Shown: in pieces, positions 1-25,594 of the stretch
Position numbering within the stretch: position 1 is the first letter of the stretch
How the letters are laid out: every line of letters begins with the position of its first letter
Source: Phycisphaerae bacterium
GTDB lineage: Bacteria; Planctomycetota; Phycisphaerae; UBA1845
Direction of reading: 5' to 3'
Length of the DNA stretch: 37,367 bases
Assembly (NCBI GenBank): GCA_046754265.1
Contig: JBHHVM010000002.1
Span: forward strand, 1 to 37,367
Translations under genes and position numbers: made by a program
The notes under the pieces: model-generated
What the model was told of the DNA's origin: nothing
The model's database searches: none
Seen by the model: the letters and a program-made list of their open reading frames with translations, nothing else

Positions 1-95
1 CCCGGCTTGGATGACATGGCGGAACGGGCTGGGCATGAAGCCATCGTACTTGGGCCGATTGATGCTGCCAACAACCATTTGCGCTCCGCAGGCGC

Positions 96-2144
96 ATGTT
101 GCCTTGCGGTCTGTGGCCGGGACCATTACAATCAATTAGGAAAGCCTGTGCGCACGAGCTAATGAAAGATGCCAGCTCAACATCTCCAGCGCATGAGTCC
201 GGCGTGAATCGGCCATTGTGGTTGGTCACCGCCCTCTTCGTCGTGGGCATCGTGACCGGCTCCTACTGGTTCGCCAAGTCCAGAACACCCGCACCGGCGG
301 ATCCCGGGACGCTTAACGTCCTCCTGATCACCCTCGACACAACTCGGGCCGATTTCCTGGGATGCTACGGTTCACAGGCTGTGCAAACGCCGAACCTCGA
401 TCAGCTCGCGAGCCAAGGCGCCCTGTTTGAGAACTGCACGACCTGCACCTCGCTGACGCTTCCATCCCATTGCAGCATCATGACCGGCGTCTACCCCTTC
501 GTCCATGGCGTGCGAAAGAACGGCACCAACCGGTTACCATCCAACAGCGAGACGCTTGCAGAAATCCTGAAGGCGGCTGGATTGCATACCCGGGCAATTG
601 TGGCGTCGTTCGTGCTCAATCGAATGTTTGGAATCGATCAGGGTTTCGAGGGATTCAGCGAAGTGTCTCGTGGGGCCAACACCATCGCCCTTCATGCTGA
701 GCGCCGCGGCGACGAAGTTTGCGAAGATGCCTTGGGTGCCCTGCGAGACCTGTCATCCGATCGGTTTTTTCTATGGGTACACTTCTACGACCCGCATTAT
801 CCGTATGTGGCCACGGGTGCCGGGTTGTCTAGCCCGACCCAGGCCTACGCTCAAGAGATCGAGTTTACCGACCGTCAGATTGGTCGATTGATCGAGGAGC
901 TCGCGGTGTTGGGCTTGACCTCGCGAACGTTGGTGGTCGTGGTGGGCGACCACGGTGAAGCGTTTAGTGAGCACGAAGAATACCAACACGGATATTTTGT
1001 CTACGACACCACCCTACGCGTCCCGCTGATCTTTCGATGCCCCGGCACGGTACCGCCGGGCCGGAAGGTCCAGGGGCGCGTTCGCACCATCGACGTAGCA
1101 GCCACGATTTGTGATTTCCTGCATCAGAAACCGCTCAGCCGGCAACAAGGCCATAGCCTGATGTCGCTGATTCGCGGCGACAGCCAGGATCTCGACCTGA
1201 ATGCCTACGGCGAATCCCTGGAAGGACACCTGCAATTTGGCCTGTCACCGCTCCGCAGTCTTCACCACGAATCGTGGAAGTATATACTGGCCCCCAGACC
1301 GGAGCTTTATGATCTGCACGACGATCCGGGCGAGTTGAACAACCTGATAGATCGCTTTCCGGAGCGAGCGGCCCAAATGCGCCAACGCCTGCGATCGATC
1401 ATCGCCGCCGCCCCTCCGCCGCCTCCGGACGACGCAGCGGCTCTGGAATTGAGCGCCGCCGACCTGGCCATGCTGCAATCGCTCGGTTACACCGGTGGCA
1501 TAGACACCCAGGCCCTTCAAGGCGATGAGCAAGAGCGGTTTGAGCCGATAGGAAAGGATCCAAAGGACTTCACCGAAGCCATAACCTTGTATTCCCAGTC
1601 TCATTGGGCCTTGACCGCCGGCCAACTGGAATACGGCGAGTCGTTGCTGCGAAGATTGGTCGACCGCGTTCCGTCGGCAGCACATATACGGGCCGATCTC
1701 GCCTTTGTCCTCCAGGAGCAGCAGAAGACCGCCGAGGCCCTTGTCCAGTACGAGCGAGCCGTCGCCCTGGCGCCGGATGACGGCTACGTTCGCCGGATGT
1801 ACGGTGGACTGCTCATGAGGATGGGACGTTGGGACGCTGCGGTCGAGCAGTTGACCCGGGCCGTCGCTGATCGGCCTGACGACCTGGAAGGCTGGTACAA
1901 TTTGGGCGTAGCCGTCGCCTCCCAGGGGCGATTCGCCCAGGCCAGGAATCACTTCGAGCGGGCGTTGGTCATCGATCCCAAGCATGTGAGCTCGATTCAC
2001 GCCTTGGGTGCAGCCTACTTGCGGGAAGGAATGCTCCATGAAGCCGAAGATTGTTTTGGCCGGGCGCTCCGAATCAACCCAAGCCATCGCAGATCGCAAC
2101 AAGACCTGCAACGCGTTCAGCAACGATTGCACCAGAGAGGGTAG
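96..2144 (+). CDS. Membrane-anchored alkaline-phosphatase-superfamily (sulfatase/NPP-like) hydrolase with C-terminal TPR repeats
   Basis: 682-aa ORF; an in-frame alternative ATG at 162 would give MKDASS... TM helix LWLVTALFVVGIVTGSYWF. Metal/active-site blocks NVLLITLDTTRADFLGCYG, TLPSHCSIMTGVYPFVHG and VVVVGDHGEAFSEHEEYQHG. The last ~190 aa are TPR-like repeats (e.g. WYNLGVAVASQGRFAQARNHFERALVIDP). Confidence 0.8.
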   Translation: MLPCGLWPGPLQSIRKACAHELMKDASSTSPAHESGVNRPLWLVTALFVVGIVTGSYWFAKSRTPAPADPGTLNVLLITLDTTRADFLGCYGSQAVQTPNLDQLASQGALFENCTTCTSLTLPSHCSIMTGVYPFVHGVRKNGTNRLPSNSETLAEILKAAGLHTRAIVASFVLNRMFGIDQGFEGFSEVSRGANTIALHAERRGDEVCEDALGALRDLSSDRFFLWVHFYDPHYPYVATGAGLSSPTQAYAQEIEFTDRQIGRLIEELAVLGLTSRTLVVVVGDHGEAFSEHEEYQHGYFVYDTTLRVPLIFRCPGTVPPGRKVQGRVRTIDVAATICDFLHQKPLSRQQGHSLMSLIRGDSQDLDLNAYGESLEGHLQFGLSPLRSLHHESWKYILAPRPELYDLHDDPGELNNLIDRFPERAAQMRQRLRSIIAAAPPPPPDDAAALELSAADLAMLQSLGYTGGIDTQALQGDEQERFEPIGKDPKDFTEAITLYSQSHWALTAGQLEYGESLLRRLVDRVPSAAHIRADLAFVLQEQQKTAEALVQYERAVALAPDDGYVRRMYGGLLMRMGRWDAAVEQLTRAVADRPDDLEGWYNLGVAVASQGRFAQARNHFERALVIDPKHVSSIHALGAAYLREGMLHEAEDCFGRALRINPSHRRSQQDLQRVQQRLHQRG

Positions 2145-2151
2145 GGCATTT

Positions 2152-3945
2152 TCAAGTGGGTGTTGGAGTCTGGGTCTTTCCGAAGAACAGCCAGGCTGGA
2201 ATACCGAACGCAACGGTGGCAACCATAGGGATGGCTGCATCCGAGTACTCCTGTAGCACTAACTTCCCGATGGTAAAGGTAAGTGCGTACAATGCCGCAG
2301 CCGAAAGAGGCCAGGCCAGCAACGACTGCCAGGTCAACTCTGATCGCCCAGCCTCCGGGCATCGCCGTTTCACCGCGTTCCAGAGAAAACCACTGGGGCG
2401 GGCTTGGCGATAAAAGCGTTGCAGTGTGTCCCAATCTGAGTGAGGCGTAAGCAAGGTAACGGTGACCCAAACCAGGGAGCAGGTTACCGACGTGGCCAGG
2501 ATGCAGGTGGTCGCGCTCCAGTCGGTCAACGTTCGAAAGGCAGTCGTGCTCACCAGCGAAGCCACCATGGCGGATATCTCCGACCAGGCGTTGACCCGCC
2601 ACCAGAACCAACGCACCATGAGCACCAAACCGATGCCCGCCTGCAGGTTGAAGAGCACCAGCCAGGCGTCTTTGATGCTGTTCATAAAGTACGCCAGGAC
2701 AATCGACAACAGGGCAAACCCCAGCGTGGCTAGACGCGAAACCCGTATGCACTGCCGTTCATTGGCCAGGGGCCGCCAGAATCGTTTATAGAAATCGTTG
2801 ACGAAGTACGACGCGTTCCAATTAAGATGCGTGTCCACGGTGGACATGAACGCAGCCAGCAGTGAGGCGATCATCAGGCCGCGAAGCCCGATGGGAAGAA
2901 CGTCCATAATCAGCATGGGATAACCCGATTCGCGGTCGGCAAGATCGGGATAGTAGACCAGAGCCACCAGCGCTACGACGATCCAAGGCCAGGGGCGCAA
3001 CGCAAAGTGGGCCACGCTGTACCAGACGGCGGTGAGCACCGAATCTCTTTCCGAGCGGGCGCTGAACATCCTCTGCGTCCCTATGCCTCCGCTACAATCT
3101 CCCCACCACAGAATCGAAAGGTAGACGACAAACGCACTGAGCGGCATCCATTCCGAGCCGCTGCCGGGCCAAAACGCCAGCAGATCCGAGGCCTGATCGG
3201 CGCCAAGCCGGTCCGCCAGCTTCGTTTTGAGGGATTCGACGCCGCCAACGGCATCCACAGCATAGAACGCAAACAGCATCGAGGCGACGATGGCCACTCC
3301 GAATTGGAACAGGTCCGTGATGACGATGCCCCAGAACCCGGACATAACCGTATACAGGGTGGCCGTCACGAAGAGCGCAATCAGCACGATCCATTTCCAG
3401 GCGTCGAACGACCCGGCTGCCCAGCCAAACGAGTTGGCGATGGCCTGCTCCAGAGAAACCACCCAGTGGGGTTCTGCAATCGTCGCACTGACGATCTTCT
3501 GCATGGCCAGCATCACCCAGGCCAGAGTGAAAGTACTGAAGATCACCGAAACATAGAATGCCTTGAACCCCCGAAGAAATGCGCCCGGCCGCCCTCCGTA
3601 GCGCAGTTCGATGAACTCGGCATCGGTGATCACCCCCACGCGACGCCACAGCCTGGCAAAGACGGCGATGGCCAGCGTCCAGGCGACCACCTGGTTCCAC
3701 CACAACCAGTTTCCGGCGATGCCCTTTTCAGCAACGATGCCGGTAATTGCCAGAGGGGTGTCAGCCGCAAAAGAGGTGGCCACCAGCGAGGTTCCGGCGA
3801 TCCACCAGGGCAGCCTGCGTCCAGCCACGAAGAACTCGGCCACACTACCGCCGGCCCGGCGCATGAACAGCAGCCCGATCGTCGTCACCAAAGCGATATA
3901 ACACCCGATGATTGACCAATCCAGCCAATGCATCAGCGACGACAT
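2152..3945 (-). CDS. Sodium:solute symporter (SSF) family transporter
   Basis: 597-aa highly hydrophobic multi-helix ORF. The N-terminal block FFVAGRRLPWWIAGTSLVATSFAADTPLAITG is typical of the SSF family. Its start overlaps the stop of the upstream gene by 13 nt (3933-3945), suggesting co-translation in an operon. Confidence 0.85.
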   Translation of the reverse strand: MSSLMHWLDWSIIGCYIALVTTIGLLFMRRAGGSVAEFFVAGRRLPWWIAGTSLVATSFAADTPLAITGIVAEKGIAGNWLWWNQVVAWTLAIAVFARLWRRVGVITDAEFIELRYGGRPGAFLRGFKAFYVSVIFSTFTLAWVMLAMQKIVSATIAEPHWVVSLEQAIANSFGWAAGSFDAWKWIVLIALFVTATLYTVMSGFWGIVITDLFQFGVAIVASMLFAFYAVDAVGGVESLKTKLADRLGADQASDLLAFWPGSGSEWMPLSAFVVYLSILWWGDCSGGIGTQRMFSARSERDSVLTAVWYSVAHFALRPWPWIVVALVALVYYPDLADRESGYPMLIMDVLPIGLRGLMIASLLAAFMSTVDTHLNWNASYFVNDFYKRFWRPLANERQCIRVSRLATLGFALLSIVLAYFMNSIKDAWLVLFNLQAGIGLVLMVRWFWWRVNAWSEISAMVASLVSTTAFRTLTDWSATTCILATSVTCSLVWVTVTLLTPHSDWDTLQRFYRQARPSGFLWNAVKRRCPEAGRSELTWQSLLAWPLSAAALYALTFTIGKLVLQEYSDAAIPMVATVAFGIPAWLFFGKTQTPTPT

Positions 3946-5735
3946 TCAGGGGCGATCGGCCCGGAGATTCCCGGGCCCGTGAAGCAGTTCCCAAACAGAG
4001 AGAAGTCGCCCAGGTCCACGACCAGATCGAGGTTCAAGTCACCATCGACCGCCAGTCCGGAGGCGGCGTTGGCCGGGCCTGCAAGCATGGCGCGGAAGTC
4101 GGCGAAGTCATCCCAGTCTGCGTCACCATCCCCATCCAGGTCCGCAACGTTCCGAGGATCGGGAAATTGATTGGCGTAACCGTCGAAGTGAAACACACTG
4201 AATCCCTCCAACGCCTGCAACTGGCTCGGCGTCAAAAGAGTGTGCAGCCATTCCAGCGCGGTGGTCATGGCTGAGTATGGTGTCGGGGTCATGTTGTCTG
4301 CAAACGAATTGATCGGCACCTCGGGTGGCACGGGCTGAATGTCCGCCGCCAGCAGAACGCGTCTCCCCTTGCCCGCAGCCTGGTCCAATTCATGCGTGAC
4401 CCAGTTCAATAGTCCGCCGGGCGAGTCGATGTAACTCATAAAGGTCAGCTCATCTGCATGATCCATCACATGCTCGTTGAAGAGCTGCGTCACGCCGTCA
4501 TACACAAATGGGTTGGGCAACATCCCGGCGATGTTGAAGTGGGCGGATAAATCGGCCCCAACGCCCATGGCCGGCTCACCGTTGGCATCCAGGTGGTTTC
4601 GGGCATTGACCAGCACGTTGTCGAGAAACTGCCGGGCAACGTTCTGTCGCTCGGATTCCACGGAAGTCCAGCCCACGCTGATCCAGAATTCGATGTCATA
4701 ATGCATGTCGTCGAAGTTGTCGAGAGAGTTCCCCGGAGTCTCAGCGTGAAATGTCAAGATGTCGTCGATACTGGAGCGGATTAAAACGGGATCTTGATAC
4801 ACTTCAATGGCACTGATCAATGCCGCGACGCGGATGCCGCTGCTATGGGCGGTGGTGAGGAAGGTTCTCAAGTTATCGCGCAATGTCGCGGCGCCGGCCC
4901 AGGCGTCGAACGCGCCGAAGTAGATGCGGTTGATCCCTTCGGCGGCGCAGAAATCCAGTATGCGTTGCGACTCGGCCGCATCGTCTACCCGCAGGTTGTT
5001 GGGAAAAGTGTACAGCCACATCGCGCGAACCGCATCACCGTCGGGAGGTGGGCGAAGAACAACGGGAGTCAATTCGAACGGCCCCCCGCCCACATGGGTC
5101 ACTCCGAAAACTTCATCGAAATCGAATCGCGAAATCCCAGTCTGATCGTTGGTTTCCAGGACCAGTTTGGGCCGCCCGGAGGTAAGATCCAACGGCCCGG
5201 TCCCGGTGGTGCGAGTCATCGCCGTAAATGCAAACGTGAAGGTCTGATAGACCGACGAAATGGGAACGGCCGGAGTGGACCATTCGGTGGCATTAGGCAA
5301 ATCCAGAGCGAAGCGCAACAAGGGCGTGCCGGTGTGTCCACCCAAGTCCACCGAGCGGGCATCCACGCGCACCGCCTCGAAGCCGGACAAGTCCACCACC
5401 CCCTGCATGATTTCACCGATGCCGAACGTGGCGCTGGCCCAGTTCGCCGAATGAAACGCGCCGTTGCCGATAGAGCCGCCGGCCTGTACGCCCGCGTCGG
5501 TAGTGGGCACACCAAAAGCAAACCAATTCTCACGCGGATTCATGCTGCCCAACGGAGAGGCATTAAAGTCGGTGATGATGACGTCGGCCAGCGCGACCGA
5601 GCCGGACAGCGCGACCGCAACGACCACCCCGGCCAAGCTGGAGCGGCACGCCACACCCCTTGGCAGGCGTGTTGAGGTGCATGGAAATGGTCTAGGGGGT
5701 GTGCAGTCGAGCAATTGTTCGCCCCAGTGGCGCAT
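3933..5735 (-). CDS. Secreted protein: N-terminal CBM-like module, central glycoside-hydrolase-like TIM-barrel domain, C-terminal dockerin-like repeat pair
   Basis: 600-aa ORF with a hydrophobic signal-like segment (LAGVVVAVALSGSVALA). Central region is paralogous to ORF 6609-8102 (ILDFCAAEGINRIY, TTAHSSGIRVAAL, MHYDIEFW, LTFMSYID). C-terminus carries Asp-rich EF-hand/dockerin-like repeats DLDGDGDADWDDFADFRAMLAGP and DGDLNLDLVVDLGDFSLFGNCFTGPG. Confidence 0.7.
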   Translation of the reverse strand: MRHWGEQLLDCTPPRPFPCTSTRLPRGVACRSSLAGVVVAVALSGSVALADVIITDFNASPLGSMNPRENWFAFGVPTTDAGVQAGGSIGNGAFHSANWASATFGIGEIMQGVVDLSGFEAVRVDARSVDLGGHTGTPLLRFALDLPNATEWSTPAVPISSVYQTFTFAFTAMTRTTGTGPLDLTSGRPKLVLETNDQTGISRFDFDEVFGVTHVGGGPFELTPVVLRPPPDGDAVRAMWLYTFPNNLRVDDAAESQRILDFCAAEGINRIYFGAFDAWAGAATLRDNLRTFLTTAHSSGIRVAALISAIEVYQDPVLIRSSIDDILTFHAETPGNSLDNFDDMHYDIEFWISVGWTSVESERQNVARQFLDNVLVNARNHLDANGEPAMGVGADLSAHFNIAGMLPNPFVYDGVTQLFNEHVMDHADELTFMSYIDSPGGLLNWVTHELDQAAGKGRRVLLAADIQPVPPEVPINSFADNMTPTPYSAMTTALEWLHTLLTPSQLQALEGFSVFHFDGYANQFPDPRNVADLDGDGDADWDDFADFRAMLAGPANAASGLAVDGDLNLDLVVDLGDFSLFGNCFTGPGISGPIAPECRR

Positions 5736-5736
5736 T

Positions 5737-6612
5737 CTACAAGCCGCCTGGAATAGCGGCGGGGTCCCCTTTCCAAACTTTCCAACTGACCTGATTGTAG
5801 CTTATCTTGTCGGGTCTGAGCGATTCGACGTGAGTATCCACAGTCAGGCCGTTGGTTCGTCCCGAGTGGCGGCCCCCAATGATTCGGCGGAATTTGAAGA
5901 CCTTCTCGGGCAGGGCCGGCGCACCGTTGGGCAGTCGATAGCCACTGAAAAATGCCTCTCCACCATCGCGATAGAATCGCCATCCCGGAGACGCCGGGGT
6001 CTTGATGGGCCAGGCATTTCCCACAACGGTCAATACGGCGCTGGTCCGTCGGCAGTTGTCGATCTTGTTAACATATGGCGGGATGGGAGGCGGCCCCCTG
6101 AACCCCAATTCCAGCTTCTCACCTTTGCGGTGGATCTCGCCATTGTAAGCATAGCTTCCACCGACTTCCACGCGGTCAACCGTGTGGGGGGGGTCGGTGC
6201 CGTTGTTCCATTTTTTGATCTCCCGAGGGGCCCGCTCCGACGGACACAGGAAAATCGATTTTTTCGCCCCGCGGATTCGCTTGTTCGTGGCTGGGTCGTA
6301 CTTGCCCAATTGGTCGTTGATGATGCCTCCGTTATGAAACGGAACGGGCCAGCGGTTTTGCAGGCCCAGGGTGTCCACCGCAGGTGGCCAGACGCCACCA
6401 TAGCATTCGGCGTACATCGTAAACGCGGTGCCGATGCCCTTGAGGTTAGCCCGGCACTTGACATCCTTGGCCTGGGCCCGGGCCCGTTTCAAGCTCGGCA
6501 GCAGGATGGAAATCAACAGGGCGATGATTGACACCACCACCAGCAACTCGATCAGCGTGAAACATCGCTTTCTTCCACTCCCGTCGAACGCTCGGCGATG
6601 TTTGGCCGTCAT
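5737..6612 (-). CDS. Prepilin-type N-terminal cleavage/methylation domain protein (DUF1559-like pseudopilin)
   Basis: The N-terminus RKRCFTLIELLVVVSIIALLISILLPSL is the classic type IV pilin/T2SS pseudopilin methylation motif. Near the C-terminus there is an H-X9-D(G/T)-like block, GGRHSGRTNGLTVDTHV. The stop lies 1 nt from the next gene's start, and the ATG overlaps the upstream gene's stop (ATGA, 6609-6612). Confidence 0.85.
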   Translation of the reverse strand: MTAKHRRAFDGSGRKRCFTLIELLVVVSIIALLISILLPSLKRARAQAKDVKCRANLKGIGTAFTMYAECYGGVWPPAVDTLGLQNRWPVPFHNGGIINDQLGKYDPATNKRIRGAKKSIFLCPSERAPREIKKWNNGTDPPHTVDRVEVGGSYAYNGEIHRKGEKLELGFRGPPPIPPYVNKIDNCRRTSAVLTVVGNAWPIKTPASPGWRFYRDGGEAFFSGYRLPNGAPALPEKVFKFRRIIGGRHSGRTNGLTVDTHVESLRPDKISYNQVSWKVWKGDPAAIPGGL

Positions 6613-8093
6613 GGCTGACTCTCCAGTTTACGATACGGATCGTAGTAATGAATCGCGATTCCTGCACAGCCCGCCGTGCGCGAAGCGATCCTTGCCAGCG
6701 TGCTCAACTGATCCCGAAAATACTCGAATGGATAAACCCCGAAGGTCGTGCCCGCTTCCACCTCCGGTCCGGTGCCCAACTCCACCGAAGCAAAGACGTT
6801 GACGCCGAACTCTTTCCCGAGTTGAAACTCACGAGCACAACAAGCCACAACGCCGTTGGAACCGGTGATGCGTTCCCGATACGACATGACCCCGACGTTA
6901 TCCACTACGCCAAACAAGGCTTCCAGCAGCGGCTTCCTCACTGATCCGAGTTTCACCTCGAAACGAGGTCGACCTTGTGCATCCGTCTGATCAAACCAGA
7001 AGGGGATATCGACGCCGAACTTCATCCCTGCCTGGTTCGATTGCTGCCGTAACGTCCGATTCAACTCCAGGTAGTCGTTCAGCACGATCTTTCTGGAGGA
7101 TTCCTCCTGCCACTCCGGCAGAATGTACGGTTCGTTGTCCAGATGGACGGCGTCGTAGCGTTGCCGGGCGGTGCCCTGCCGATTGAAGTCGGCCAACGCC
7201 GCCACCAGACGCTCCATTCGACCATGATTCTTCTTGAGCACGTATTGGGGGCGACCGTCGAGGGCATGCACGGTCATGCCTCGCTCGTGGGCAGCCCCGA
7301 TCAGCGATCGTTGATGCTCCGCCAGACGAAGGCTGACCATCCCGTTTTCATAAGTGTAGGGCACCTGAACGAATAAATCCGTGATCCCGTGACCCTGGCT
7401 GAAATCGAGCAGTTCCTTCCTGTTGGCTGCATCCGGAAGAATCCGGTCCTTCTTCCATACCCACAGCGCATAGCGAAGATCCCGCGAAGGTTCACCGTCT
7501 TTGGGGCCAACCACCGGAAGATGTCCATCGCCACGCACCACGTGAATCGAGTCCAGGGCAAACCAGGCTGACCCTTGACCCTCAAGCAGCATGTGGAGAA
7601 GCGCGGACCCGTCCCACCCCGGCGGCAGCGGCACCAACAGTTGGCGCCAACTCCCATCACTCAAGTCGGAGGCGCCAAACTCCGCCAGCATTGGCTCAGA
7701 GGGTCCCCCTGCGGCGCTAGACCGCAGTTCCAAGCGCAGCTTCCTGGCGCCGAGAGCACCCACCGCCTGCAGGGCAAGAAAACGCCGCCCAGAATTGTCG
7801 GCCCGGCTGGAGTTGTGCTTGGAGGGTGGTGCGCTCAGCGGGACCACAGCCCCGACGCCCGAGGCCGCCGCCTTGGCCGACACTTCGACGCGCCAGGCCC
7901 ACCTGGCCGGCTCTCCTTGCAGGTCGATTCGATCCGCAATGGTATCGGGTCTACCGCCGGCGCATCCGAAGAACGAACCCGCTTCGGTTTGCGCGGACGT
8001 CCCAAAGTCGACCACAAGCCGTGACGCCGCCTTGGGCGAAGCACATATCGCCCCAAGGCAGGCGTAAACGAGCGGCGTCAATGTGGCCGTCAT
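6609..8093 (-). CDS. Secreted glycoside-hydrolase-like TIM-barrel protein (paralog of 3933-5735)
   Basis: ORF 6609-8102. I prefer the ATG at 8093 (MTATLTPLVYACLGAICA, signal-like), which is preceded by GAGGAG. (beta/alpha)8-like pattern with LLDFSQGHGITDLF, GAAHERGMTVHAL, VHLDNEPY (clan GH-A style NEP acid/base motif), VGVMSYRE and VFASVELG. Confidence 0.7.
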   Translation of the reverse strand: MTATLTPLVYACLGAICASPKAASRLVVDFGTSAQTEAGSFFGCAGGRPDTIADRIDLQGEPARWAWRVEVSAKAAASGVGAVVPLSAPPSKHNSSRADNSGRRFLALQAVGALGARKLRLELRSSAAGGPSEPMLAEFGASDLSDGSWRQLLVPLPPGWDGSALLHMLLEGQGSAWFALDSIHVVRGDGHLPVVGPKDGEPSRDLRYALWVWKKDRILPDAANRKELLDFSQGHGITDLFVQVPYTYENGMVSLRLAEHQRSLIGAAHERGMTVHALDGRPQYVLKKNHGRMERLVAALADFNRQGTARQRYDAVHLDNEPYILPEWQEESSRKIVLNDYLELNRTLRQQSNQAGMKFGVDIPFWFDQTDAQGRPRFEVKLGSVRKPLLEALFGVVDNVGVMSYRERITGSNGVVACCAREFQLGKEFGVNVFASVELGTGPEVEAGTTFGVYPFEYFRDQLSTLARIASRTAGCAGIAIHYYDPYRKLESQP

Positions 8094-8144
8094 GTAGAGC
8101 ACGTCTCCTCGTCTCCGTTCTGACCGCGAGGCAACTCGGCCAGG

Positions 8145-8803
8145 CTAAGTCCGTCGGCGACGCCTGAACCAGACCAATCCACCGGCCACTAGTAGACCCG
8201 CCGCAGTCGGCTCGGGCGTGATGCCGATGATCTGGTCGTAGTGCCACCGCCCGACCCCAGTGTTTGCCCCCTTGGGCATTACCAACTTAAGCTGCAAACT
8301 CGGGTCGTTCAAGTTGGGCAAGCTCCCAAAAAAGGGAGCGAGATTCGCGTAATAGTTTGGGGTCAGGTTGACAAAATCGCAAACGTCTGGTAATTGGAAG
8401 TTGGCACCACCGTGGTAGACCACTCTGCGTATCCAAGGGCCATCAGGAACTTCATTTCCGGAGTCCCGCCAAACGGCACCTGACCGCCGACCAGGTCGGT
8501 GGGTATATCGAATCTGGCATCGACGCTCATGCCGATGAACGGCGACAGGTCTACCCCCACTGGCGATACGTCAACGATGCCAAAAGTCATGGCCGGGTCG
8601 CTGAAATCGGCGGTGTGGAATCGGGCAATACCGGTACCGGCCGATCCCGGAACCTCGTTGCCGCTATCGGTGGTGCCGCCGCCAAACGAACCCCACCCTT
8701 GTGCTCCGGTCTCGAAGTCAAAAAGAACGCTGTCGGCGATGGCCACTGGAGCGGCCGCCGCCATCACCAGTGCAGTGAGTCCTACAAGCTTTTTGCTCTT
8801 CAT
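8145..8803 (-). pseudogene. PEP-CTERM-anchored secreted protein carrying the shared CBM-like module, interrupted by a 1-nt frameshift
   Basis: Two overlapping same-strand ORFs, 8363-8824 and 8145-8423. The first has SD GAGGAGG plus ATG at 8803 and the signal peptide MKSKKLVGLTALVMAAAAPVAIA. The second ends in ITPEPTAAGLLVAGGLVWFRRRRRT (PEP motif, TM segment, Arg cluster). Alignment to the C-terminal module of ORF 16302-17945 runs continuously across the frame change near the T4/A4 run at 8372-8375. Confidence 0.7.
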
Positions 8804-8880
8804 CTTCTTATTCCTCCTCATCAAGAACCTGTGCTAGGATATGCACAATCCAAGCAACGCAACCCTTAAGCCCGGAACCC

Positions 8881-9861
8881 TTAATAACACCAGGACGGGA
8901 AACTAGCGTTGTTTCCCGGGCCCTGAAGACATTCGTTAAAATTGGCCGTGTCCAAGTCGTCGAAAGCGGCATTGCGATTCGCATCCAGCGAGGCACAGCC
9001 CACATCGGTCGGAACACCTGGAAAACAATTCTGGAGTACCCGGAAATCACCCAGGTCCACGTCATTGTCGGAATCCTTGTCGGCCCATAACACCGGCGGG
9101 GTTCCAATCAGCGTGATTTCATCAAAATGGATGATGTTGACGTTCTGTGACGTGGGGCCCGGGCGCCAGATCATGCGAATGGCTTTGATGTCAGCCAAGT
9201 TCAGGGGATCGTTGCCGGCCACCGCATCGTTGTCAAACCCGTCGTCCAGTGCGGCAAAATGGATGGTCACCGTCTCCCATTGCTCGAGCCCGTTGGGCTG
9301 GAATCGCCGGTCAATCCACGGCTTGCCCGGGATATCAGCCGGGACCACGGCCACCGTGTCGCCATCGTCAGGCGCAGGTGGCGGATCCGAATCAATCAAC
9401 TGAAACTGCATGCGTACACCGGGCGTGCCCTGGGTGGCCGGCGGAAAATCGCCCGGGGGCAGTTCCAGCATCACGCGCATGCTGATGCCGGTCCCCTGAC
9501 TCAAGTCCAGATTGATATCGGCGATGCCCGAGCCTTGTGGGCCGCACAGAGGTTGGCCCGGAGGAAACGGTCCAATGCCCACGCCATGGCCCAGGAACGG
9601 CCCCCCCGGCACCAGCCAGTCACCGGTGTGAAACGCCCCGTTGCCGTCTTCTGAGACCACACCTGTGCCGGACGGATCCGCTCCAAAATCCGTCGTCGGG
9701 GTCCCGAAGAAATTCCAATTATCCGGGTCGCAACCATTCGAGTTGATATCAAAATCGAATAGCACCGTGCCCACCGGTACCTGGGCGTGAGCCTGCCGTA
9801 CGCCCCCTACGGTCAGGACTGCGGTTGCCACAACCATGGCGATTCCTAGCCGGCTATCCAT
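8881..9861 (-). CDS. Secreted CBM-like module protein with C-terminal dockerin-like repeat pair
   Basis: ORF 8881-9915. The start at 9861 (MDSRLGIAMVVATAVLTVGGVRQAHA) has a strong SD, GGAGG, 6 nt upstream. N-terminal VLFDFDINSNGCDPDNWNFFGTPTTDFG...GNGAFHTGDW is homologous to the N-terminus of ORF 3933-5735. C-terminal repeats are DKDSDNDVDLGDFRVLQNCFPG and DANRNAAFDDLDTANFNECLQGPG. Confidence 0.75.
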   Translation of the reverse strand: MDSRLGIAMVVATAVLTVGGVRQAHAQVPVGTVLFDFDINSNGCDPDNWNFFGTPTTDFGADPSGTGVVSEDGNGAFHTGDWLVPGGPFLGHGVGIGPFPPGQPLCGPQGSGIADINLDLSQGTGISMRVMLELPPGDFPPATQGTPGVRMQFQLIDSDPPPAPDDGDTVAVVPADIPGKPWIDRRFQPNGLEQWETVTIHFAALDDGFDNDAVAGNDPLNLADIKAIRMIWRPGPTSQNVNIIHFDEITLIGTPPVLWADKDSDNDVDLGDFRVLQNCFPGVPTDVGCASLDANRNAAFDDLDTANFNECLQGPGNNASFPSWCY

Positions 9862-9918
9862 AATGCCCCTCCTCTTGTCTTGCTTGACAATGCCTCGGGC
9901 CCATCGAGGCCACACGGA

Positions 9919-11052
9919 TCATGACCAACGAGGCAATCGGAACACTCGTTGCAATGTCGGCACCACGGCACCGCATACGATGCCGTATTCTCCCAACGTC
10001 GAGGGAACCAGACGAGTGGTTCCGGGACTGCAAGAAAGTTTGTGCTGTTCCAGTATCTTCCCGAGTCGCTCCATAATCATCGCTTGAAAGGCCGCCACGT
10101 CGGAACCAATAACCAGCAAGCCCGGCTCCAACAGGTTGATGGTGTGAACAACCAGGGTAGATAAATCGGAAATGGTGCGATTCAAGGCTGCGACAGCCTT
10201 GGGATCCTGGCTTTCCACGTCACCGATAAAGCCTGCGACATCCAGTCCTCCCTCGGGGCCTGAGCCCTGGGCGCGGACCGCCGGATGAACGATGGGCACG
10301 GTGATTTCGCCAGCCGCACCAAACTCACCGTGATAAGGCTCGCCGTTCACGATGATACCGGCGCCGATGCCCACCACACCGTGCGACGCATCCATGAATC
10401 GAAGATTCAAAAAGACCAGGCTCTTGATGCCCCGTGCTCCCCCAAGAAAGCTCGCGGCCATTCCGCCCGCCAGTGAGTCGTTCACCACATCGGTAGTAGT
10501 CTGCCAACGGGCTTCACACATTTCACGAAAATGAACGTCGTGCCAATCGAATGGCTTGCTCCAGCGAACGATGCCCTCAGCCCCATGCACATCGCCGGGT
10601 AGTGCCACACCCACGCCCAACATCTCGGATTGTTCAATCCCCATCTCGGTCAGGATTTGCTTGCGAATGTCATCTACCCGGTCCAGGGTCCGTTCGGGCA
10701 TAGCAGGGGAAAACGGCTCGCGAATCTGGGCGAGCAAGCTACCACTCAAGTCACATACGCCCGCCAGGATTGCCGTCTCGGTGATCTCAAAACCCAGCGC
10801 CTGAGCCACGCCGCGCCTCAATGCCACCATACGTGGTGCCCTCCCGCCCCTGGTCTTGCCAGCCCCGATCTCCTCCACCAGGCCTTCATCGAGAAGTTGA
10901 TTGACCACCGCCCCCACCGTCGGGGGACGGATCCGTGTCAACTCCGCCAATTCGGCACGGGAAACAGCCCCGTTTTTTCTGATCCTTTCCAAGACCAACT
11001 GGCGGTTGACCACTCGGCTGAGCTGCGGTTTTCCTGTCAGCATATTTGGCAT
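9919..11052 (-). CDS. ROK-family transcriptional regulator (NagC/XylR-like)
   Basis: N-terminal wHTH NRQLVLERIRKNGAVSRAELAELTRIRPPTVGAVVNQLLDEGLVEE followed by a ROK sugar-kinase-like fold (GVALPGDV, GIGAGIIVNGEPYHGEFGAAGE). The ORF-track start at 11088 would use AT-rich, atypical codons, so I prefer ATG 11052 (MPNMLTGK) or 11043. Confidence 0.85.
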   Translation of the reverse strand: MPNMLTGKPQLSRVVNRQLVLERIRKNGAVSRAELAELTRIRPPTVGAVVNQLLDEGLVEEIGAGKTRGGRAPRMVALRRGVAQALGFEITETAILAGVCDLSGSLLAQIREPFSPAMPERTLDRVDDIRKQILTEMGIEQSEMLGVGVALPGDVHGAEGIVRWSKPFDWHDVHFREMCEARWQTTTDVVNDSLAGGMAASFLGGARGIKSLVFLNLRFMDASHGVVGIGAGIIVNGEPYHGEFGAAGEITVPIVHPAVRAQGSGPEGGLDVAGFIGDVESQDPKAVAALNRTISDLSTLVVHTINLLEPGLLVIGSDVAAFQAMIMERLGKILEQHKLSCSPGTTRLVPSTLGEYGIVCGAVVPTLQRVFRLPRWS

Positions 11053-11063
11053 AGAAACAATCT

Positions 11064-11083
11064 TAATAAAGGAGTATAATAAA
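11064..11083. promoter_or_regulatory. AT-rich patch with direct TAATAAA repeats and a perfect TATAAT hexamer in the ROK/GH94 divergent region
   Basis: TAATAAA at 11064-11070 and 11077-11083, separated by 6 nt. TATAAT on the + strand at 11075-11080. This is a conspicuous AT island in an otherwise GC-rich window, immediately upstream of the preferred ROK start. Confidence 0.25.
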
Positions 11084-11374
11084 CTCAATGGCCTACGGAA
11101 AAAAAATCGAAGATTGCACGAAAAGATGCGTTCGGGACCAATAGGCCCCTGATTGACGTGTTTCTGAGGTGGAACAAGCGCCGAAAATGACAGAGAATCC
11201 TCTGATGATGCGACGGGGTTTGAATCTACTCCCCTGGCTTCCCACGGCAGATTTGGGCAAAACCGTCATGCAACGAAGGCTGATTTCAATATCCCCAATC
11301 ACCCATATTGCCCATTGTGTTGCCTGCGCTCTGGTTCGTGGGGGGATTTGCTGAGTTAATTGGGATGAACGCAC

Positions 11375-14248
11375 ATGACCCCACACGAAACGCAATTGGC
11401 TGAATCTGCAGGACCGCCCGCTGAATCCCGGGTCGGCCCCAAGAGCCTGACGCGCCCGGATGGGCTGCGGGATGAACTGGAGCGCATCTCTCATCTGGTT
11501 GGACAGGCCAAAACCGAAATGGCCAACGGTGTGACCCACATGATGCCGGGGCAAGCGTGCTTTTTGGCGGATGGCCGGGTGATGTGCCGTGAGCGAGAGC
11601 GGGGCGACAGCCGATTCCCCTACGGAAAGGGTGGATTCAACTTCTGGGCCTATGCTTCGGGGCGGATGCACTGCAATGACGGGCTGTTTTTCGTGTTCTT
11701 GCCGACTCGCGGTGGGCAAGAGCCACCGGTCGCCTTTTTTGCCGGGACTCGCGCTGAGGCCAACGAGTCGTTTGAGAGCGTTTCGTTGCTTCCGGTGCCA
11801 TTCCTGGAAGGGAGCGAGCCTTCGGTCGAAGATCGCTATGCGATTATTGGACCGGACGCGGTGTATTACATCACCAAGACTCAAGATCTCTTCTCAGCCG
11901 TACGCGTGTTTCTGGATCAATCGCAGGCCAGCAGCACGCACATCTGTTTCACTGTATACCTTCAGAACTTGTCCAAACGCTCGCTGGATACGTTCACTTC
12001 GGCCTATATGAACCCGTTGTGCCGTCATCAGTTCATGGAGACGAACGAGGATCAGTGGTTTAAGAAGATCCAAGTAGACCCGTCCGCTGCTTTGATGGCC
12101 ATGGATCCCCAAGAGCACGCCATAAATGCAGGACGATCACTTCCTCCTTTTGTCGTGGAAGTCAATGAAGACGGTAAACGCGACAACTCAAGCCTAAACC
12201 ACGCGGTTGTCCGGCGGGCCATCGAGATGCGATCGGTCGAGACTGGTCACGCCTTGACGCTGACGGTCGCGGGTTTAGCCGACCAAATGCTGGGAAGAAA
12301 GCGCCCCCAGCGCGGAATGTTGCATTGCCAGGTATGCACGGCCCGGCTGAGCTACGTCGGATGCGCCCGCCGGACCCTGGGCACAGCCAGGTTCCTTCGC
12401 ACCGGACAGTTCGATGGCAACGTCCCGGTGACGGTTTTCAACGACAATGCGGTGATCGGTGATTTGTGCCGATTTGATCTTCTCCCGAACCATTTCGTAC
12501 GTGTGGACTACGTCTTATCGATTCCGAGCAGTGCCGACCAAGAGGAACTGGACTTCTTGCAACCCGTCGGTGCTAGGACAATCGACCTAGCGTATCAACG
12601 GATTCGCAAGCAGTCCACAGGAATTGTAAACGGGCTGCAAATGCGAGTCAGCGGCTCTTCACTGGGCGGGCTGGATGACAAGACCTTCAACCATTTCTTT
12701 CCGCTGCTCAAAGCCCAGGTAGCGCTGTGTGCCGAAACCAAAGGCTTCATGCATCCCTCTCCCAACTCGTTAATCGGAATGCGCGACGTATTCCAGGCCA
12801 TCGAGGGGCATTTGCTAAGCGACTCGGAGGCAGCCAAGCGAAAGATACTTGAAGCCCTGGGTTTTGTGATGCCCGACGGTCAATGCCCGCGGCAATACTC
12901 CCTGCCTGCTAGGAATGGCCCGTGCAAGGCAGACCTGCGGGAGTTCATTGACCAAGGTGCCTGGGTCATATCGACGGTTTACACCTATCTCGCCACCACA
13001 GGAGATTGGCCAATACTGGATGAAATCGTGGGCTACCACCGCATCGACGGGCAGAACGGCGATGCTTTGGAACCGACAAGGGAACGGGACTCGGTGGCCG
13101 ATCATCTGGTCCGCATCATGGACTACCTCTTGAAACACCGCGACTCGGCCACGGGACTCGTGTTGGCCTTGTACGGCGATTGGAACGATGCACTGGACGG
13201 ACTGGGCGTTCCCTCTCGATCTTGCACGCGCTTCGGCAACGGCGTGAGCGTCATGGCCAGTTTACAGGTGTATCGAAACTGCAGGGAAATGATCGAAGTG
13301 CTGTCGCGATATGGACCGGACGAATACGCATCCTTGATCGAACAGTACCGCCTCGCGCGGGAAGGGCTTCGCCGGGGCTTGCAAGAGCACGCCGTTGTGG
13401 AGCGAGACGGAAGCCGCCGTATTGTGCATGGCTGGGGTGACAACCGAGAATACTTGATCTGCAGCTTTGAAGACAGCGACGGGAAAGCTCGTGACGGACT
13501 GACATCCAATGCGTTCTGGGTTCTGTCCGGATTGTTGCAAGACACTCAGGACGATCTCAAGCCCGAGATCCTGAAAGCGATGCGCCGACTGGATTCCTCG
13601 TTTGGATTGCGAACCTTCGCCCCCGGATTCTCTCCGGACGCCCCGGGCGTCGGTCGTATCGCCAAGCTGCCTATCGGAACGGCCGAGAACGGGGCCACCT
13701 ACGTCCACGCCACCACCTTCGGAATCATGGCCCTTTTCATGATGGACGAACCGGAATTCGCGTGGGAGCAGGTACTCAAGATTCTTCCTTTCGCTCCGCA
13801 TCAGCAGGGGATCAGCCACTCTCCGTTTGTGATGCCCAACGCCTATGCGTTCAACCCCGAACTCAATCTCGGCGGGCAGAACATGAACGACTGGCAGACG
13901 GGCAGCTCGAACGTCCTCTTGAAGACGTTGGTCCGGCACGCCTTCGGATTCCGACCTGGTTTCGACGCCCTGCGGATCGTGCCGGCTGCCTGGTCGCCGT
14001 TTCAGCGCATGGAGTTGTCGGCGTGGGCTCACCGTCGGCCCATCAGAATCGTGCGTACTCAGGGTGAAGCGAAGGAAAGGCGTTTCGCCGTCAACGGCCG
14101 ACCGGCGGAGAAGCAGTACCTGGTAGGGTTCGGCACCTCGATGAGCCTGGAGATCCGTTATACCGAGCTCTCCAAAGAATGTGAAAATCTCATCGAGATT
14201 CGTGACCCCGATTCATCACCTCTAACCTGCAAGACGAACCATGATTAA
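11375..14248 (+). CDS. GH94-like glycoside phosphorylase (cellobiose/chitobiose-phosphorylase superfamily)
   Basis: 957-aa ORF. The catalytic-domain hallmark LALYGDWNDALDGLG matches the GDWND acid motif of GH94-type (alpha/alpha)6 phosphorylases. It also has ENGATYVHATTFGIMALFM (phosphate-site His region) and QNMNDWQTGSSNVLLK. Its stop overlaps the next gene's start by 8 nt. Confidence 0.75.
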   Translation: MTPHETQLAESAGPPAESRVGPKSLTRPDGLRDELERISHLVGQAKTEMANGVTHMMPGQACFLADGRVMCRERERGDSRFPYGKGGFNFWAYASGRMHCNDGLFFVFLPTRGGQEPPVAFFAGTRAEANESFESVSLLPVPFLEGSEPSVEDRYAIIGPDAVYYITKTQDLFSAVRVFLDQSQASSTHICFTVYLQNLSKRSLDTFTSAYMNPLCRHQFMETNEDQWFKKIQVDPSAALMAMDPQEHAINAGRSLPPFVVEVNEDGKRDNSSLNHAVVRRAIEMRSVETGHALTLTVAGLADQMLGRKRPQRGMLHCQVCTARLSYVGCARRTLGTARFLRTGQFDGNVPVTVFNDNAVIGDLCRFDLLPNHFVRVDYVLSIPSSADQEELDFLQPVGARTIDLAYQRIRKQSTGIVNGLQMRVSGSSLGGLDDKTFNHFFPLLKAQVALCAETKGFMHPSPNSLIGMRDVFQAIEGHLLSDSEAAKRKILEALGFVMPDGQCPRQYSLPARNGPCKADLREFIDQGAWVISTVYTYLATTGDWPILDEIVGYHRIDGQNGDALEPTRERDSVADHLVRIMDYLLKHRDSATGLVLALYGDWNDALDGLGVPSRSCTRFGNGVSVMASLQVYRNCREMIEVLSRYGPDEYASLIEQYRLAREGLRRGLQEHAVVERDGSRRIVHGWGDNREYLICSFEDSDGKARDGLTSNAFWVLSGLLQDTQDDLKPEILKAMRRLDSSFGLRTFAPGFSPDAPGVGRIAKLPIGTAENGATYVHATTFGIMALFMMDEPEFAWEQVLKILPFAPHQQGISHSPFVMPNAYAFNPELNLGGQNMNDWQTGSSNVLLKTLVRHAFGFRPGFDALRIVPAAWSPFQRMELSAWAHRRPIRIVRTQGEAKERRFAVNGRPAEKQYLVGFGTSMSLEIRYTELSKECENLIEIRDPDSSPLTCKTNHD

Positions 14249-16106: not shown

Positions 16107-16221
16107 TCAATGATTTGGAATTGCCGGCGATACCATGGGATGACGCCACCGTTTCGACGACATCGTGCAAGTGCCCATGCCGCAAACACCCGCTCTGTGA
16201 ATCGAATGAACGCGGAGCCTG

Positions 16222-16250
16222 TTGAATCGAGGCGACACCACAACTATGAT
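16222..16250 (+). promoter_or_regulatory. Candidate sigma70-like promoter for the GH16-like gene
   Basis: TTGAAT (16222-16227), 17-nt spacer, TATGAT (16245-16250), about 50 nt upstream of the ATG at 16302. That ATG has its own GGAGG SD 6 nt upstream. Confidence 0.35.
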
Positions 16251-16301
16251 GGTGCGTTGAGCTGACGGGCAAACCCAGTTGCGGAACCTCGGAGGGTTAG
16301 G

Positions 16302-17945: not shown

Positions 17946-18003
17946 GCGGGGTATGGGCAGCTCACTTTGTTTGAGAGGTACTACTGGCGTAGTCTGGGTG
18001 GCG

Positions 18004-18591: not shown

Positions 18592-18640
18592 CAAGGCCCT
18601 TTGGCAAGGCGCCGCCAAGAAGCGGCAGGCGGTGGGATGA
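18506..18640 (+). pseudogene. 3'-terminal remnant of a tyrosine recombinase (phage-type integrase) gene
   Basis: No ATG, so it is absent from the ORF track. The frame beginning after the TAG at 18449 translates as ...AGVELPDVQRLAGHASIQTTLKYYHHVSDKALWQGAAKKRQAVG*. This is the conserved C-terminal LGH-x-x-x-x-T-x-x-Y-x-H box containing the catalytic Tyr. Only about 45-60 codons survive. The stop lies 92 nt upstream of tRNA-Arg. Confidence 0.6.
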
Positions 18641-18676
18641 TGCCCGGTTTCTGCGACCGTTCTGCCACGGGATACG

Positions 18677-18705
18677 TTGCCTGAAATGGCTCAAAACCCT
18701 AAGAT
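18677..18705 (+). promoter_or_regulatory. Candidate promoter for tRNA-Arg
   Basis: TTGCCT (18677-18682), 17-nt spacer, TAAGAT (18700-18705), about 27 nt upstream of the mature tRNA 5' end. Confidence 0.3.
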
Positions 18706-18731
18706 GTTGTGTGGCAGCAAGTTAAGTAAGA

Positions 18732-20761: not shown

Positions 20762-20775
20762 CTTCGCCGGCCGGG

Positions 20776-20794: not shown

Positions 20795-20837
20795 ACGGCG
20801 TAGCCCTTGGCCGCAACCGATTGAGGCTGGGCACGAA

Positions 20838-20950: not shown

Positions 20951-20984
20951 TGGGGCCGACGCGGAATGATTCGGAGGGGCCGGG

Positions 20985-25587: not shown

Positions 25588-25594
25588 CAATCCC

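Follow-up and report, generated by a model that had tools for sequence, protein, structure and literature searches.

We identify, in a 37,367-nucleotide stretch of DNA from a Phycisphaerae bacterium (Planctomycetota; assembly GCA_046754265.1, contig JBHHVM010000002.1, positions 1 to 37,367; hereafter the window), a gene cluster in which a pilin-like gene is set among genes for exported glycan-binding-like and enzyme-like proteins, a regulator, and a transporter. The seven-gene minus-strand cluster and the gene order described in an initial annotation of this sequence are borne out by open reading frame (ORF) calls across positions 2152-11088. The operon opens with a ROK-family regulator with a putative N-terminal winged helix (9919-11052; the longest ORF reaches 11088), followed by a secreted protein resembling carbohydrate-binding modules (CBM-like) with a dockerin-like C-terminus (8881-9915; 344 aa by longest ORF), a CBM-like protein with a PEP-CTERM signal, frameshifted near 8377 (8145-8824), and TIM1, which has a signal peptide, a CBM-like β-sandwich, and a (β/α)8 barrel and no anchor domain (6609-8102). 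Next come a 291-aa prepilin-type pseudopilin (5737-6612), TIM2, which has a signal peptide, a CBM-like β-sandwich, a (β/α)8 barrel, and a C-terminal dockerin-like double calcium loop (3933-5735), and, as the last gene, a 597-aa Na+/solute symporter of the SSF family (2152-3945). The cluster as such stands, but its boundaries had been drawn too narrowly: it is larger than seven genes and includes divergent plus-strand genes that were missed. These encode a 957-aa glycoside phosphorylase of glycoside hydrolase (GH) family GH94 type, clan GH-Q, divergent from the ROK gene (11375-14248), a fusion of NagB (glucosamine-6-phosphate deaminase) and a PIG-L (LmbE) deacetylase (14241-16106), and a secreted 547-aa GH16-fold protein with a Cys-rich linker and the CBM-like domain of the cluster (16302-17945).

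Two of the three close junctions previously claimed for the minus-strand genes are exactly as claimed when checked, namely the ATGA at which the TIM1 stop meets the pilin start (6609-6612) and the 13-nt overlap between TIM2 and SSF (3933-3945). The third, a 1-nt TAG-A-ATG junction between pilin and TIM2 (5735-5739), is probably an artefact of calling the longest ORF, because a start at GTG 5654 gives TIM2 a normal signal peptide and the length of its orthologues; this favored start leaves an 82-nt gap after the pilin gene. A start analysis also places the probable start of the 344-aa CBM-like protein at ATG 9861. On the plus strand, the last 8 nt of the phosphorylase gene are shared with the start of the NagB/PIG-L gene. 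Scans for consensus promoters and terminators inside the cluster returned counts at chance level. The layout suggests two divergent transcription units, the ROK operon on the minus strand and the GH94 unit on the plus strand, that flank a common control region, with a spacer of 286 bp between the ROK and GH94 genes.

The initial annotation made its reading depend on conservation of this gene order in related genomes, and the order is indeed conserved. We collected 85 related loci (numbered L001 onward) by looking up proteins and by scanning 185,579 species genomes once, with neighborhoods from the genome scan taken from the best 80 of 206 genome matches; these loci were then queried by tblastn with the window proteins. 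The complete order, which we call type 1, has GH94 on one strand and ROK, CBM-like, PEP-CTERM, TIM1, pilin, TIM2, and SSF on the opposite strand; it is present in approximately 15 further Phycisphaerae genomes at 36–66% protein identity. Loci with the full order and a divergent GH94 gene are L001-L008, L011, L014, L015, L018, and L021-L027. The GH94 gene is divergent from ROK in every type-1 locus, the 344-aa CBM-like gene is syntenic in all full loci, and the SSF transporter is 57–66% identical among syntenic loci, in most of which its start abuts or overlaps the TIM2 stop. The flanks differ between genomes, except for a recurrent gene for a sulfatase-like/tetratricopeptide repeat (TPR) protein. 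Because its orthologues lie inside the cluster in five other genomes (L005/L021, L014, L018, L024, and L027; 45–50% identity), where they sit between pilin and TIM2, the GH16-fold gene belongs to the system.

Rearranged and paralogous versions of the cluster also exist. Four of the type-1 genomes carry a second, paralogous copy (type 2) that lacks a nearby GH94 gene and instead has a different SSF gene followed by NagB, NagA, a GH20 hexosaminidase, and an FG-GAP protein, all on the same strand with short gaps or overlaps. In a third group (L010, L013, and L017), ROK-TIM1 lies beside GH94 and the SSF, pilin, and CBM-like genes are rearranged close by. Distant TIM1 homologues adjoin GH94, ROK, or SSF genes in Spartobacteria (L040), Nitrospinaceae (L074), and Omnitrophota (L082), and a locus from a Verrucomicrobiota metagenome-assembled genome (L055) contains a TIM1-pilin-SSF triad. 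In one clade of type-1 loci (L005/L021, L018, L024, and L027) genes for an FG-GAP protein, a second ROK protein (~47% identical), and a second SSF transporter, of the type-2 kind, come after the type-1 SSF gene, and further downstream in L005 lie a class III aminotransferase, an M20 peptidase, and a GFO/IDH/MocA oxidoreductase; these extra genes may form a further amino-sugar module. On the Kiritimatiellae contig WLWN01000001.1 (L028-L035 and L044), a ~11.5-kb unit with a TIM1 homologue, a GH16-like gene, and GH20 is tandemly repeated at both ends of the 3.1-Mb contig, either because the unit is truly amplified or because assembly of a circular genome produced an artefact.

Conservation extends to the control region. 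An alignment of the sequence upstream of ROK in 17 loci recovered the motif TTGAnn, a 17-nt spacer, TAAGAT, and 7 nt to the ROK ATG, which fixes the ROK start at ATG 11052, the very position at which the initial annotation ended the cluster. The promoter occupies 11053-11088 in the window, with the -35 element TTGAGT at 11083-11088 and the -10 element TAAGAT at 11060-11065, and the window has one match against 0.11 expected. We read it as a σ70-type promoter with an apparently leaderless or nearly leaderless ROK mRNA, because the -10 element lies only 7 nt from the ATG. The promoter-proximal spacer together with the -10 element forms a perfect 10-bp palindrome, consensus CTTAATTAAG, of which the window copy (11062-11071) carries one mismatch. 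A count of the exact 11-mer over the ~1.3 Mb of fetched loci gave 18 occurrences, 17 of them at a ROK promoter in 16 loci (L018 was counted on both strands), so that the exact 11- to 13-mer is confined essentially to this one position. The lone exception, in L017, precedes the split-off operon of PEP-CTERM, pilin, and SSF genes with the same -35/-10 geometry. From this distribution, the palindrome is probably a common control element and the candidate ROK operator. The regulator itself matches PF00480 (73.9 bits versus a cut-off of 22.9, 2e-20), its helix-turn-helix models fall slightly under their cut-offs (MarR_2, 25.0 versus 27; HTH_24, 21.2 versus 21.9), and its best NCBIfam match is NagC (1e-25), at 90 bits against an equivalog cut-off of 650. 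The relevant stretch of the window protein reads GEFGAAGEITVPIVHPAV, apparently without the Cys-rich zinc motif CxCGxxGCxE that we take to be typical of ROK proteins.

Structural modeling agrees with the labels 'TIM-barrel GH-like' and 'CBM-like' given earlier to proteins of the cluster. The AlphaFold model of TIM1, built on an alignment of 42 homologues, has a pLDDT of 90.1 and shows a β-sandwich (27-190) and a (β/α)8 barrel (210-495); TIM2 is homologous over both domains (hhalign between the families, probability 99.2%, E 6e-20) and is, by sequence, a TIM1 paralogue. Foldseek ranked CBM22-GH10 xylanases highest for TIM1, followed by GH18, GH20, GH5, GH164, and GH36 barrels, with TM-scores of ~0.3-0.55. 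The first place of CBM22-GH10 reflects a similar two-domain architecture rather than a family relation, and because these matches are generic TIM-barrel glycosidases we rejected any family assignment of TIM1 by structure. No Pfam glycosidase family matches any of 42 TIM1-family members, and no Pfam or NCBIfam model matches TIM2. A search of the barrel profile against Protein Data Bank (PDB) sequences found a single relative, 10yv, a 275-aa 'putative GH97 from Cellulomonas fimi' (E 6e-7 by single sequence, 8e-18 by profile). Like TIM1, 10yv has the D-x-E-P, D-x-P-x-W, and E-T motifs; unlike TIM1, it lacks an N-terminal β-sandwich, the M-S-Y-R motif, and the strand-8 His. The Pfam GH97 model does not match TIM1, and we found no functional description of 10yv in the literature.

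TIM1 is a glycosidase-like barrel without a close family and a candidate glycanase. Eleven residues are invariant (D322, E324, P325, D365, W369, M406, Y408, R409, E425, E441, and H485), they are kept in relatives from at least nine phyla, and all lie at the C-terminal ends of barrel strands, which is where the active sites of TIM barrels are found. TIM1 has the motifs D317-x-x-H320-x-D322-x-E324 and M406-S-Y408-R. E324 stands in D-N-E-P after the strand 318-321 and E441 closes the strand 435-441, a pattern in keeping with clan GH-A, in which N-E-P follows strand 4 and a Glu follows strand 7. No sequence match to clan GH-A families was found for TIM1, either in Pfam or with the barrel profile against PDB sequences; distant family members have I, V, or T in place of the N-E-P Asn, and TIM2 has Asp at the strand-7 position. 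The D-x-E and Tyr arrangement also resembles that of enzymes that use substrate-assisted catalysis on N-acetylhexosaminides. TIM2 retains D-x-x-H-x-D-x-E and M-S-Y, with H345, D347, E349, and M433-S434-Y435 invariant. The likeness of DxxHxDxE and MSY to GH18 is a mechanistic hint only, and GH18 structures are no closer to TIM1 by Foldseek than those of GH10, GH20, or GH5.

The pseudopilin, which the initial annotation had treated as part of the unit, proves to be an integral member of it. Its N_methyl domain scores 25.1 bits (cut-off 21.2) and TIGR02532 scores 19.6 (cut-off 16.3), and its leader, RKRC|FTLIELLVV, has Phe1 and Glu5. Among orthologues the class III leader F-T-L-[IV]-E-L-L-V-V is invariant, with G or A at position -1. 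The ATGA overlap of TIM1 stop and pilin start is present in 18 of the 20 scored Phycisphaerae loci and additionally in L002, and in the rearranged L010, L013, and L017 the pilin gene is still linked to TIM1, SSF, and CBM-like genes. Compared across loci, pilins are 42–61% identical, at or above the level of TIM1 (36–47%). In a search of 1.84 billion representative proteins, approximately 200,000 reached E ≤ 0.001, of which five matched at full length with E ≤ 1e-30; E-values then drop from 1e-61 to 1e-25, and almost all of the remaining listed matches cover only the first ~130-190 residues, three weak ones (31–36% identity) coming near full length. Because of these five full-length matches and the sharp drop that follows, we read the pilin as a narrow orthogroup with a private C-terminal domain inside a huge pseudopilin superfamily. 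DUF1559 (PF07596) reaches 21.0 bits against a cut-off of 23.3 and covers residues 43-143 only, the C-terminal motif is H-X9-D-T-H rather than H-X9-DG, and TIGR04294 does not match the window pilin, whereas it does match the L055 counterpart. Chance adjacency of the pilin gene in Phycisphaerae is rejected by the conserved ATGA and the private orthogroup; it is possible for the looser TIM1-pilin pairs of Novipirellula (L057, L060, and L061), whose genomes hold very many pilin-like genes.

The conserved overlap implies that the pilin is translationally coupled to TIM1, and we infer that the two are made in a fixed ratio. TIM1 has a Sec signal only, with no lipobox, and is the sole exported cluster protein without an anchor of its own, which is why we propose that the pseudopilin most likely exports, displays, or tethers TIM1 and its partners in concert with a type II secretion or type IV pilus apparatus whose genes lie elsewhere. 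In its fullest form the proposal is that the pilin is a cargo- or substrate-specific subunit of a polysaccharide-capturing planctomycetal apparatus, tethering or exporting TIM1 and the CBM-like partners, and that TIM1 and TIM2 found new GH families acting on N-acetylhexosamine (HexNAc) glycans; we regard this combined claim as rather unlikely. Two observations speak against a secretion or pilus role for the pilin: in the window protein, Cys replaces Gly at position -1 of the prepilin cleavage site, and at none of the loci examined does the cluster have genes for secretion or pilus assembly nearby. Both would suit a different role, namely an inner-membrane-anchored periplasmic binding protein that would deliver oligosaccharide to the symporter, as SBP_bac_10, the Pfam name of DUF1559, implies; a Cys at -1 could impair prepilin cleavage. 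The gene also lies between enzymes and transporter, an order repeated as TIM1-pilin-SSF in the Verrucomicrobiota locus, and a private C-terminal globular domain is what a ligand-specific module would be expected to have. We nevertheless judge a binding-protein role unlikely: the pilin is coupled to TIM1 and not to the transporter, the perfect conservation of the class III leader and its Glu5 favors a protein that pilin machinery processes and assembles, and SSF transporters are not known to rely on binding proteins.

The CBM-like domain recurs through the exported proteins of the cluster. The 344-aa protein matches the N-terminal domain of TIM2 (BLASTP 9e-7) and its C-terminal loop (1e-3), with no significant Pfam match; the domain of the PEP-CTERM protein is found again in two places, inside the 344-aa protein's orthologues and C-terminally in the 547-aa GH16-fold protein. 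The dockerin-like tails fall short of the Pfam model in the window (Dockerin_1, E 0.46 for the 344-aa protein, no match for TIM2). Approximately ten TIM2 homologues do carry PF00404, and the dockerin-like Asp pattern of TIM2 is conserved (D532, D534, D536, D540, and D543; D564, D566, and D577). Thus, of the family labels given earlier, SSF, ROK, prepilin leader, and PEP-CTERM hold with scores above their cut-offs, whereas DUF1559 and dockerin fall below them for the window's own proteins. In the window the PEP-CTERM gene is split into two frames of 153 and 92 aa; the fragment at 8145-8423, sequence ...TPEPTAAGLLVAGGLVWFRRRRRT, scores 22.6 bits for TIGR02595 against a cut-off of 16. Contigs from runs X1, X2, and X4 of the same hydrothermal-vent sample, assembled independently, have an extra CGAC (plus strand) after 8377, which yields a single ORF of 227 aa, where orthologues have 195-221 aa. 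Because these same-sample contigs restore an ORF of orthologue-like length, the window frameshift is an assembly error or a minor variant, and with the gene intact in all three per-run contigs we rejected its reading as a pseudogene. No exosortase gene lies within the window.

The remaining genes point to import and intracellular breakdown of a released sugar. The SSF transporter matches PF00474 (130 bits versus 22.8, 1e-37), and among proteins of known structure the sugar transporters SGLT1/2 and vSGLT are closest to it (1e-21 to 1e-16); we propose from these matches that it serves as the inner-membrane importer of the released oligo- or monosaccharide. The phosphorylase matches PF17167 (88.3 bits versus a cut-off of 27) and 17 GH94 structures at E ≤ 0.01. 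Its GMRD, GDWND, ENGATYVHA, and TGS motifs align with 8rf9, 4zle, and 2cqs; we take their roles, GDWND providing the catalytic Asp and Arg, His, and Thr/Ser binding phosphate, to be those of cellobiose and chitobiose phosphorylases. As it has no signal peptide, we propose that it would carry out a cytoplasmic phosphorolysis step. The NagB/PIG-L fusion (PF01182, PF02585) matches NF002557 with 862.8 bits (cut-off 384) over residues 4-619 of 621. For the GH16-fold protein, AlphaFold gave a pLDDT of 91.5, and the top 50 Foldseek matches are all GH16 at target TM-scores of 0.55-0.70; E109, D111, and E113 (E-x-D-x-E) are invariant in 41 homologues. Pfam, including PF00722, and PDB sequence searches returned no match, and on the strength of the model the protein is at best a very distant GH16 member or belongs to a sister family. 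The family of its N-terminal domain is widespread and has no Pfam model, with most members at ~318 aa carrying T9SS (PF18962) or PEP-CTERM tails; relatives occur at 40–54% identity in Bacteroidota, KSB1, and other phyla.

Taken together, these features lead us to propose that the cluster is a catabolic glycan-utilization locus of Phycisphaerae, probably for a β-linked N-acetylhexosamine glycan, with chitin or chito-oligosaccharides as the simplest case. Both had been named as candidate substrates in the initial annotation, and they fit the recurring neighbors NagA, NagB, PIG-L, and GH20. Amino-sugar genes appear in five contexts: in the window, as the NagB/PIG-L gene overlapping the GH94 stop; in the type-2 clusters L012, L020, and L023, as TIM2-SSF'-NagB-NagA-GH20, where SSF' is the different SSF gene; in the Verrucomicrobiota locus L055, as NagB/PIG-L (41% identical) and another PIG-L gene, both on the strand opposite TIM1-pilin-SSF and 1-3 kb downstream of it; in Kiritimatiellae L028-L035, as TIM1 followed by GH20; and in Schlesneria L076, as NagA near TIM1. 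We weight this line of evidence above the β-glucan line because amino-sugar genes recur in independent lineages and within operons.

Several observations weigh against this substrate assignment, or against the enzymology and regulation proposed with it. The substrate signals conflict, with the GH16 fold and the phosphorylase matches pointing to β-glucan and the neighboring genes and the NagC match pointing to amino sugar. Against PDB, the phosphorylase is closest to the GH94 domain of cyclic β-1,2-glucan synthase (5e-22) and to cellobionate and cellobiose phosphorylases (1e-16), and chitobiose phosphorylases rank below these β-glucan enzymes (8bou, 2e-13; 1v7v, 2e-11). The closest folds to the GH16-fold domain are lichenases, mycobacterial β-1,3-glucanases, and laminarinases, and the NagB/PIG-L gene stands beside GH94 only in the window. 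TIM1 matches no known GH family by sequence, and membership of TIM1 and TIM2 in the chitinase-containing family GH18 was rejected, as PF00704 matched none of 42 members and hhalign against E. coli ChiA gave a probability of 0.3%. The region upstream of GH94 contains no clear copy of the palindrome, and none of the RNA runs searched for the cluster region contained it.

As an alternative, the same architecture might serve a neutral β-glucan (laminarin, mixed-linkage glucan, β-1,2-glucan, or cellodextrins). Gluco-oligosaccharides set free from it by the TIM barrels and the GH16-fold enzyme would then undergo phosphorolysis by the GH94-type enzyme, and the amino-sugar genes would serve another pathway. 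The N-E-P after strand 4 and the invariant strand-7 Glu of TIM1, as in clan GH-A β-glycanases, agree with such a substrate, as does the lack of synteny of NagB/PIG-L in most type-1 loci. The replacement of the N-E-P Asn in many members is, however, unusual for clan GH-A, and the association of NagA, NagB, PIG-L, or GH20 with TIM1-family genes spans four lineages (Phycisphaerae, Schlesneria, Verrucomicrobiota, and Kiritimatiellae). The close same-strand spacing of the type-2 amino-sugar genes, as if they formed one operon, and the overlap of NagB/PIG-L with the phosphorylase stop also run counter to a separate pathway. GH16-fold enzymes that cleave chitin or poly-N-acetyllactosamine are known, so the GH16 fold is compatible with a HexNAc substrate. 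On balance we regard a neutral β-glucan as a rather unlikely substrate and retain the amino-sugar glycan.

A second alternative bears on the direction of the pathway and on the sulfatase-like/TPR gene at the cluster edge. In the window this gene (96-2144, plus strand) encodes a membrane-anchored protein (Sulfatase, 1e-37, with TPR repeats), and its membership of the cluster is uncertain. By tblastn, homologues lie at the cluster edge in at least ten loci, with 52–54% identity in L003, L025, and L026 and ~34–35% on the GH94 side in six other loci. A true sulfatase, which would imply a sulfated substrate, is unlikely, as the formylglycine motif reads T-L-P-S-H and not C/S-x-P-x-R. With a Thr nucleophile, the protein is more like alkaline-phosphatase-superfamily transferases than true sulfatases, and this would suit a locus that recycles or remodels an amino-sugar polymer of the cell itself, such as peptidoglycan fragments or an exopolysaccharide resembling poly-N-acetylglucosamine, with the PEP-CTERM and pilin-like proteins as envelope or matrix apparatus. 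PEP-CTERM proteins are generally tied to exopolysaccharide-producing, exosortase-bearing bacteria, and the cluster contains a TIGR02595 match; moreover, the TIM-barrel hydrolases PgaB, PelA, and Sph3 trim self-made amino-sugar polymers. Yet no glycosyltransferase, polymerase, or exporter genes lie in or beside the cluster at any locus examined, and the combination of ROK, symporter, and phosphorylase with NagA, NagB, and GH20 is the signature of an inducible catabolic pathway. As several CBM-like binders with export signals likewise fit the capture of an external substrate, remodeling of a self-made polymer seems to us very improbable.

Returning to catabolism of an external HexNAc glycan, we arrive at the following model of localization, catalysis, and regulation. 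The minus-strand operon would supply five exported proteins: two CBM-like binders, two CBM plus TIM-barrel enzymes, and one pseudopilin. The binders, one with a dockerin-like tail and one with a PEP-CTERM anchor, would hold the glycan at the surface while TIM1, TIM2, and the GH16-fold enzyme cut it. The SGLT-type symporter would import the product, which the phosphorylase would split into a sugar-1-phosphate and a free sugar, and NagB/PIG-L would channel the amino sugar to fructose-6-phosphate. A pathway intermediate could then relieve repression by ROK.

How such a locus compares with known systems depends on what it lacks as well as on what it contains. The absence of SusC/SusD noted in the initial annotation holds true: scanning all large ORFs of the window with Pfam revealed neither a TonB-dependent receptor nor a SusD domain, and none is listed in the related loci. 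The polysaccharide utilization loci (PULs) of Bacteroidota, for example the chitin locus of Flavobacterium johnsoniae, likewise unite binders, endo-acting enzymes, an importer, a regulator, and sugar catabolism in one regulated locus, and they too occur as paralogous loci within one genome, as types 1 and 2 do here. Unlike them, the present locus has an inner-membrane SSF importer in place of SusC/SusD or a TonB-dependent transporter, PEP-CTERM and dockerin-like anchoring in place of lipoproteins, enzymes of unclassified families, and an integral, translationally coupled pseudopilin.

The nearest functional analogue is the chitin program of Vibrio, in which a (GlcNAc)2 (N-acetylglucosamine dimer) catabolic operon with a GH94 chitobiose phosphorylase operates alongside the chitin-regulated type IV pilus ChiRP. 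Common to both are a phosphorylase of the GH94 type, enzymes of amino-sugar catabolism, and a protein like type IV pilins, joined in a response to a GlcNAc polymer that for our locus is a proposed one. The Vibrio pilin genes stand in separate loci, uptake proceeds through ATP-binding cassette or phosphotransferase systems and a chitoporin, control is by ChiS, and the chitinases belong to GH18 and GH19; here the pilin gene is inside the operon, where it overlaps an enzyme gene, and the regulator is of the ROK family. A second parallel is found in E. coli K-12 (L086, NC_000913.3, 3460000-3472000), where chiA lies ~1 kb from the cryptic gsp operon with its five pseudopilin genes and where ChiA is a cargo of the gsp type II secretion system. 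There, as here, pseudopilin genes neighbor a gene for a secreted enzyme, in that case a chitinase; there, a whole machine (gspF-gspO) stands beside one enzyme gene, whereas here an orphan pseudopilin stands among several enzymes.

Within Planctomycetota, the pilus-like fibers of crateriform structures have a proposed role in the binding and import of whole polysaccharides (Boedeker et al. 2017, cited in PMC6474216 and PMC12673574). For 'selfish' planctomycetal uptake without SusC/SusD, PMC6474216 and PMC12673574 describe the mechanism and players as unknown, with pilus-like fibers as the sole lead. Our locus genetically links a pilin-like protein with glycan catabolism; the fibers were described by microscopy. 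We found no description of this cluster in the literature. PUL-like logic is already known, and what is new is the conserved, translationally coupled, private pseudopilin together with three enzyme modules outside current family models. The locus thereby offers a conserved candidate gene set for SusC/SusD-independent polysaccharide uptake by planctomycetes, with a private coupled pseudopilin, three anchoring styles (PEP-CTERM, dockerin-like, and pilin), and a candidate operator. If our proposal is true, it would be the first genetically defined module of SusC/D-independent 'selfish' glycan uptake in Planctomycetota. The two barrel families and the GH16-like family are covered by no Pfam or NCBIfam model. 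The locus points to an unrecognized capacity for amino-sugar (chitin-type) degradation among uncultured Phycisphaerae, in the hydrothermal-vent sample and in other sampled environments; standard annotation of carbohydrate-active enzymes would probably miss it.

The remainder of the window provides some context for the cluster. G+C content is ~0.55-0.62 at 1-17000 and ~0.61-0.67 at 18000-37367; the lower values in the half that holds the cluster could reflect horizontal acquisition or the composition of these gene classes. Further exported proteins are encoded at 19073-24739: an M14 carboxypeptidase with CarboxypepD_reg, a PKD protein that bears an IPTL-CTERM sorting signal, and a protein with a lamin-tail domain whose type I dockerin match is significant (6.6e-11). 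At 25433-29559 (plus strand), genes for a response regulator of the OmpR type and a HAMP/PAS histidine kinase precede the gene for a second prepilin-type protein, a 450-aa ORF with the leader GFTLIELLVVVAIIALL. The last part of the window, 29662-37344 on the minus strand, carries housekeeping genes unrelated to the cluster, including a bifunctional PutA (1034 aa) and an AddA/AddB-like UvrD helicase-nuclease pair.

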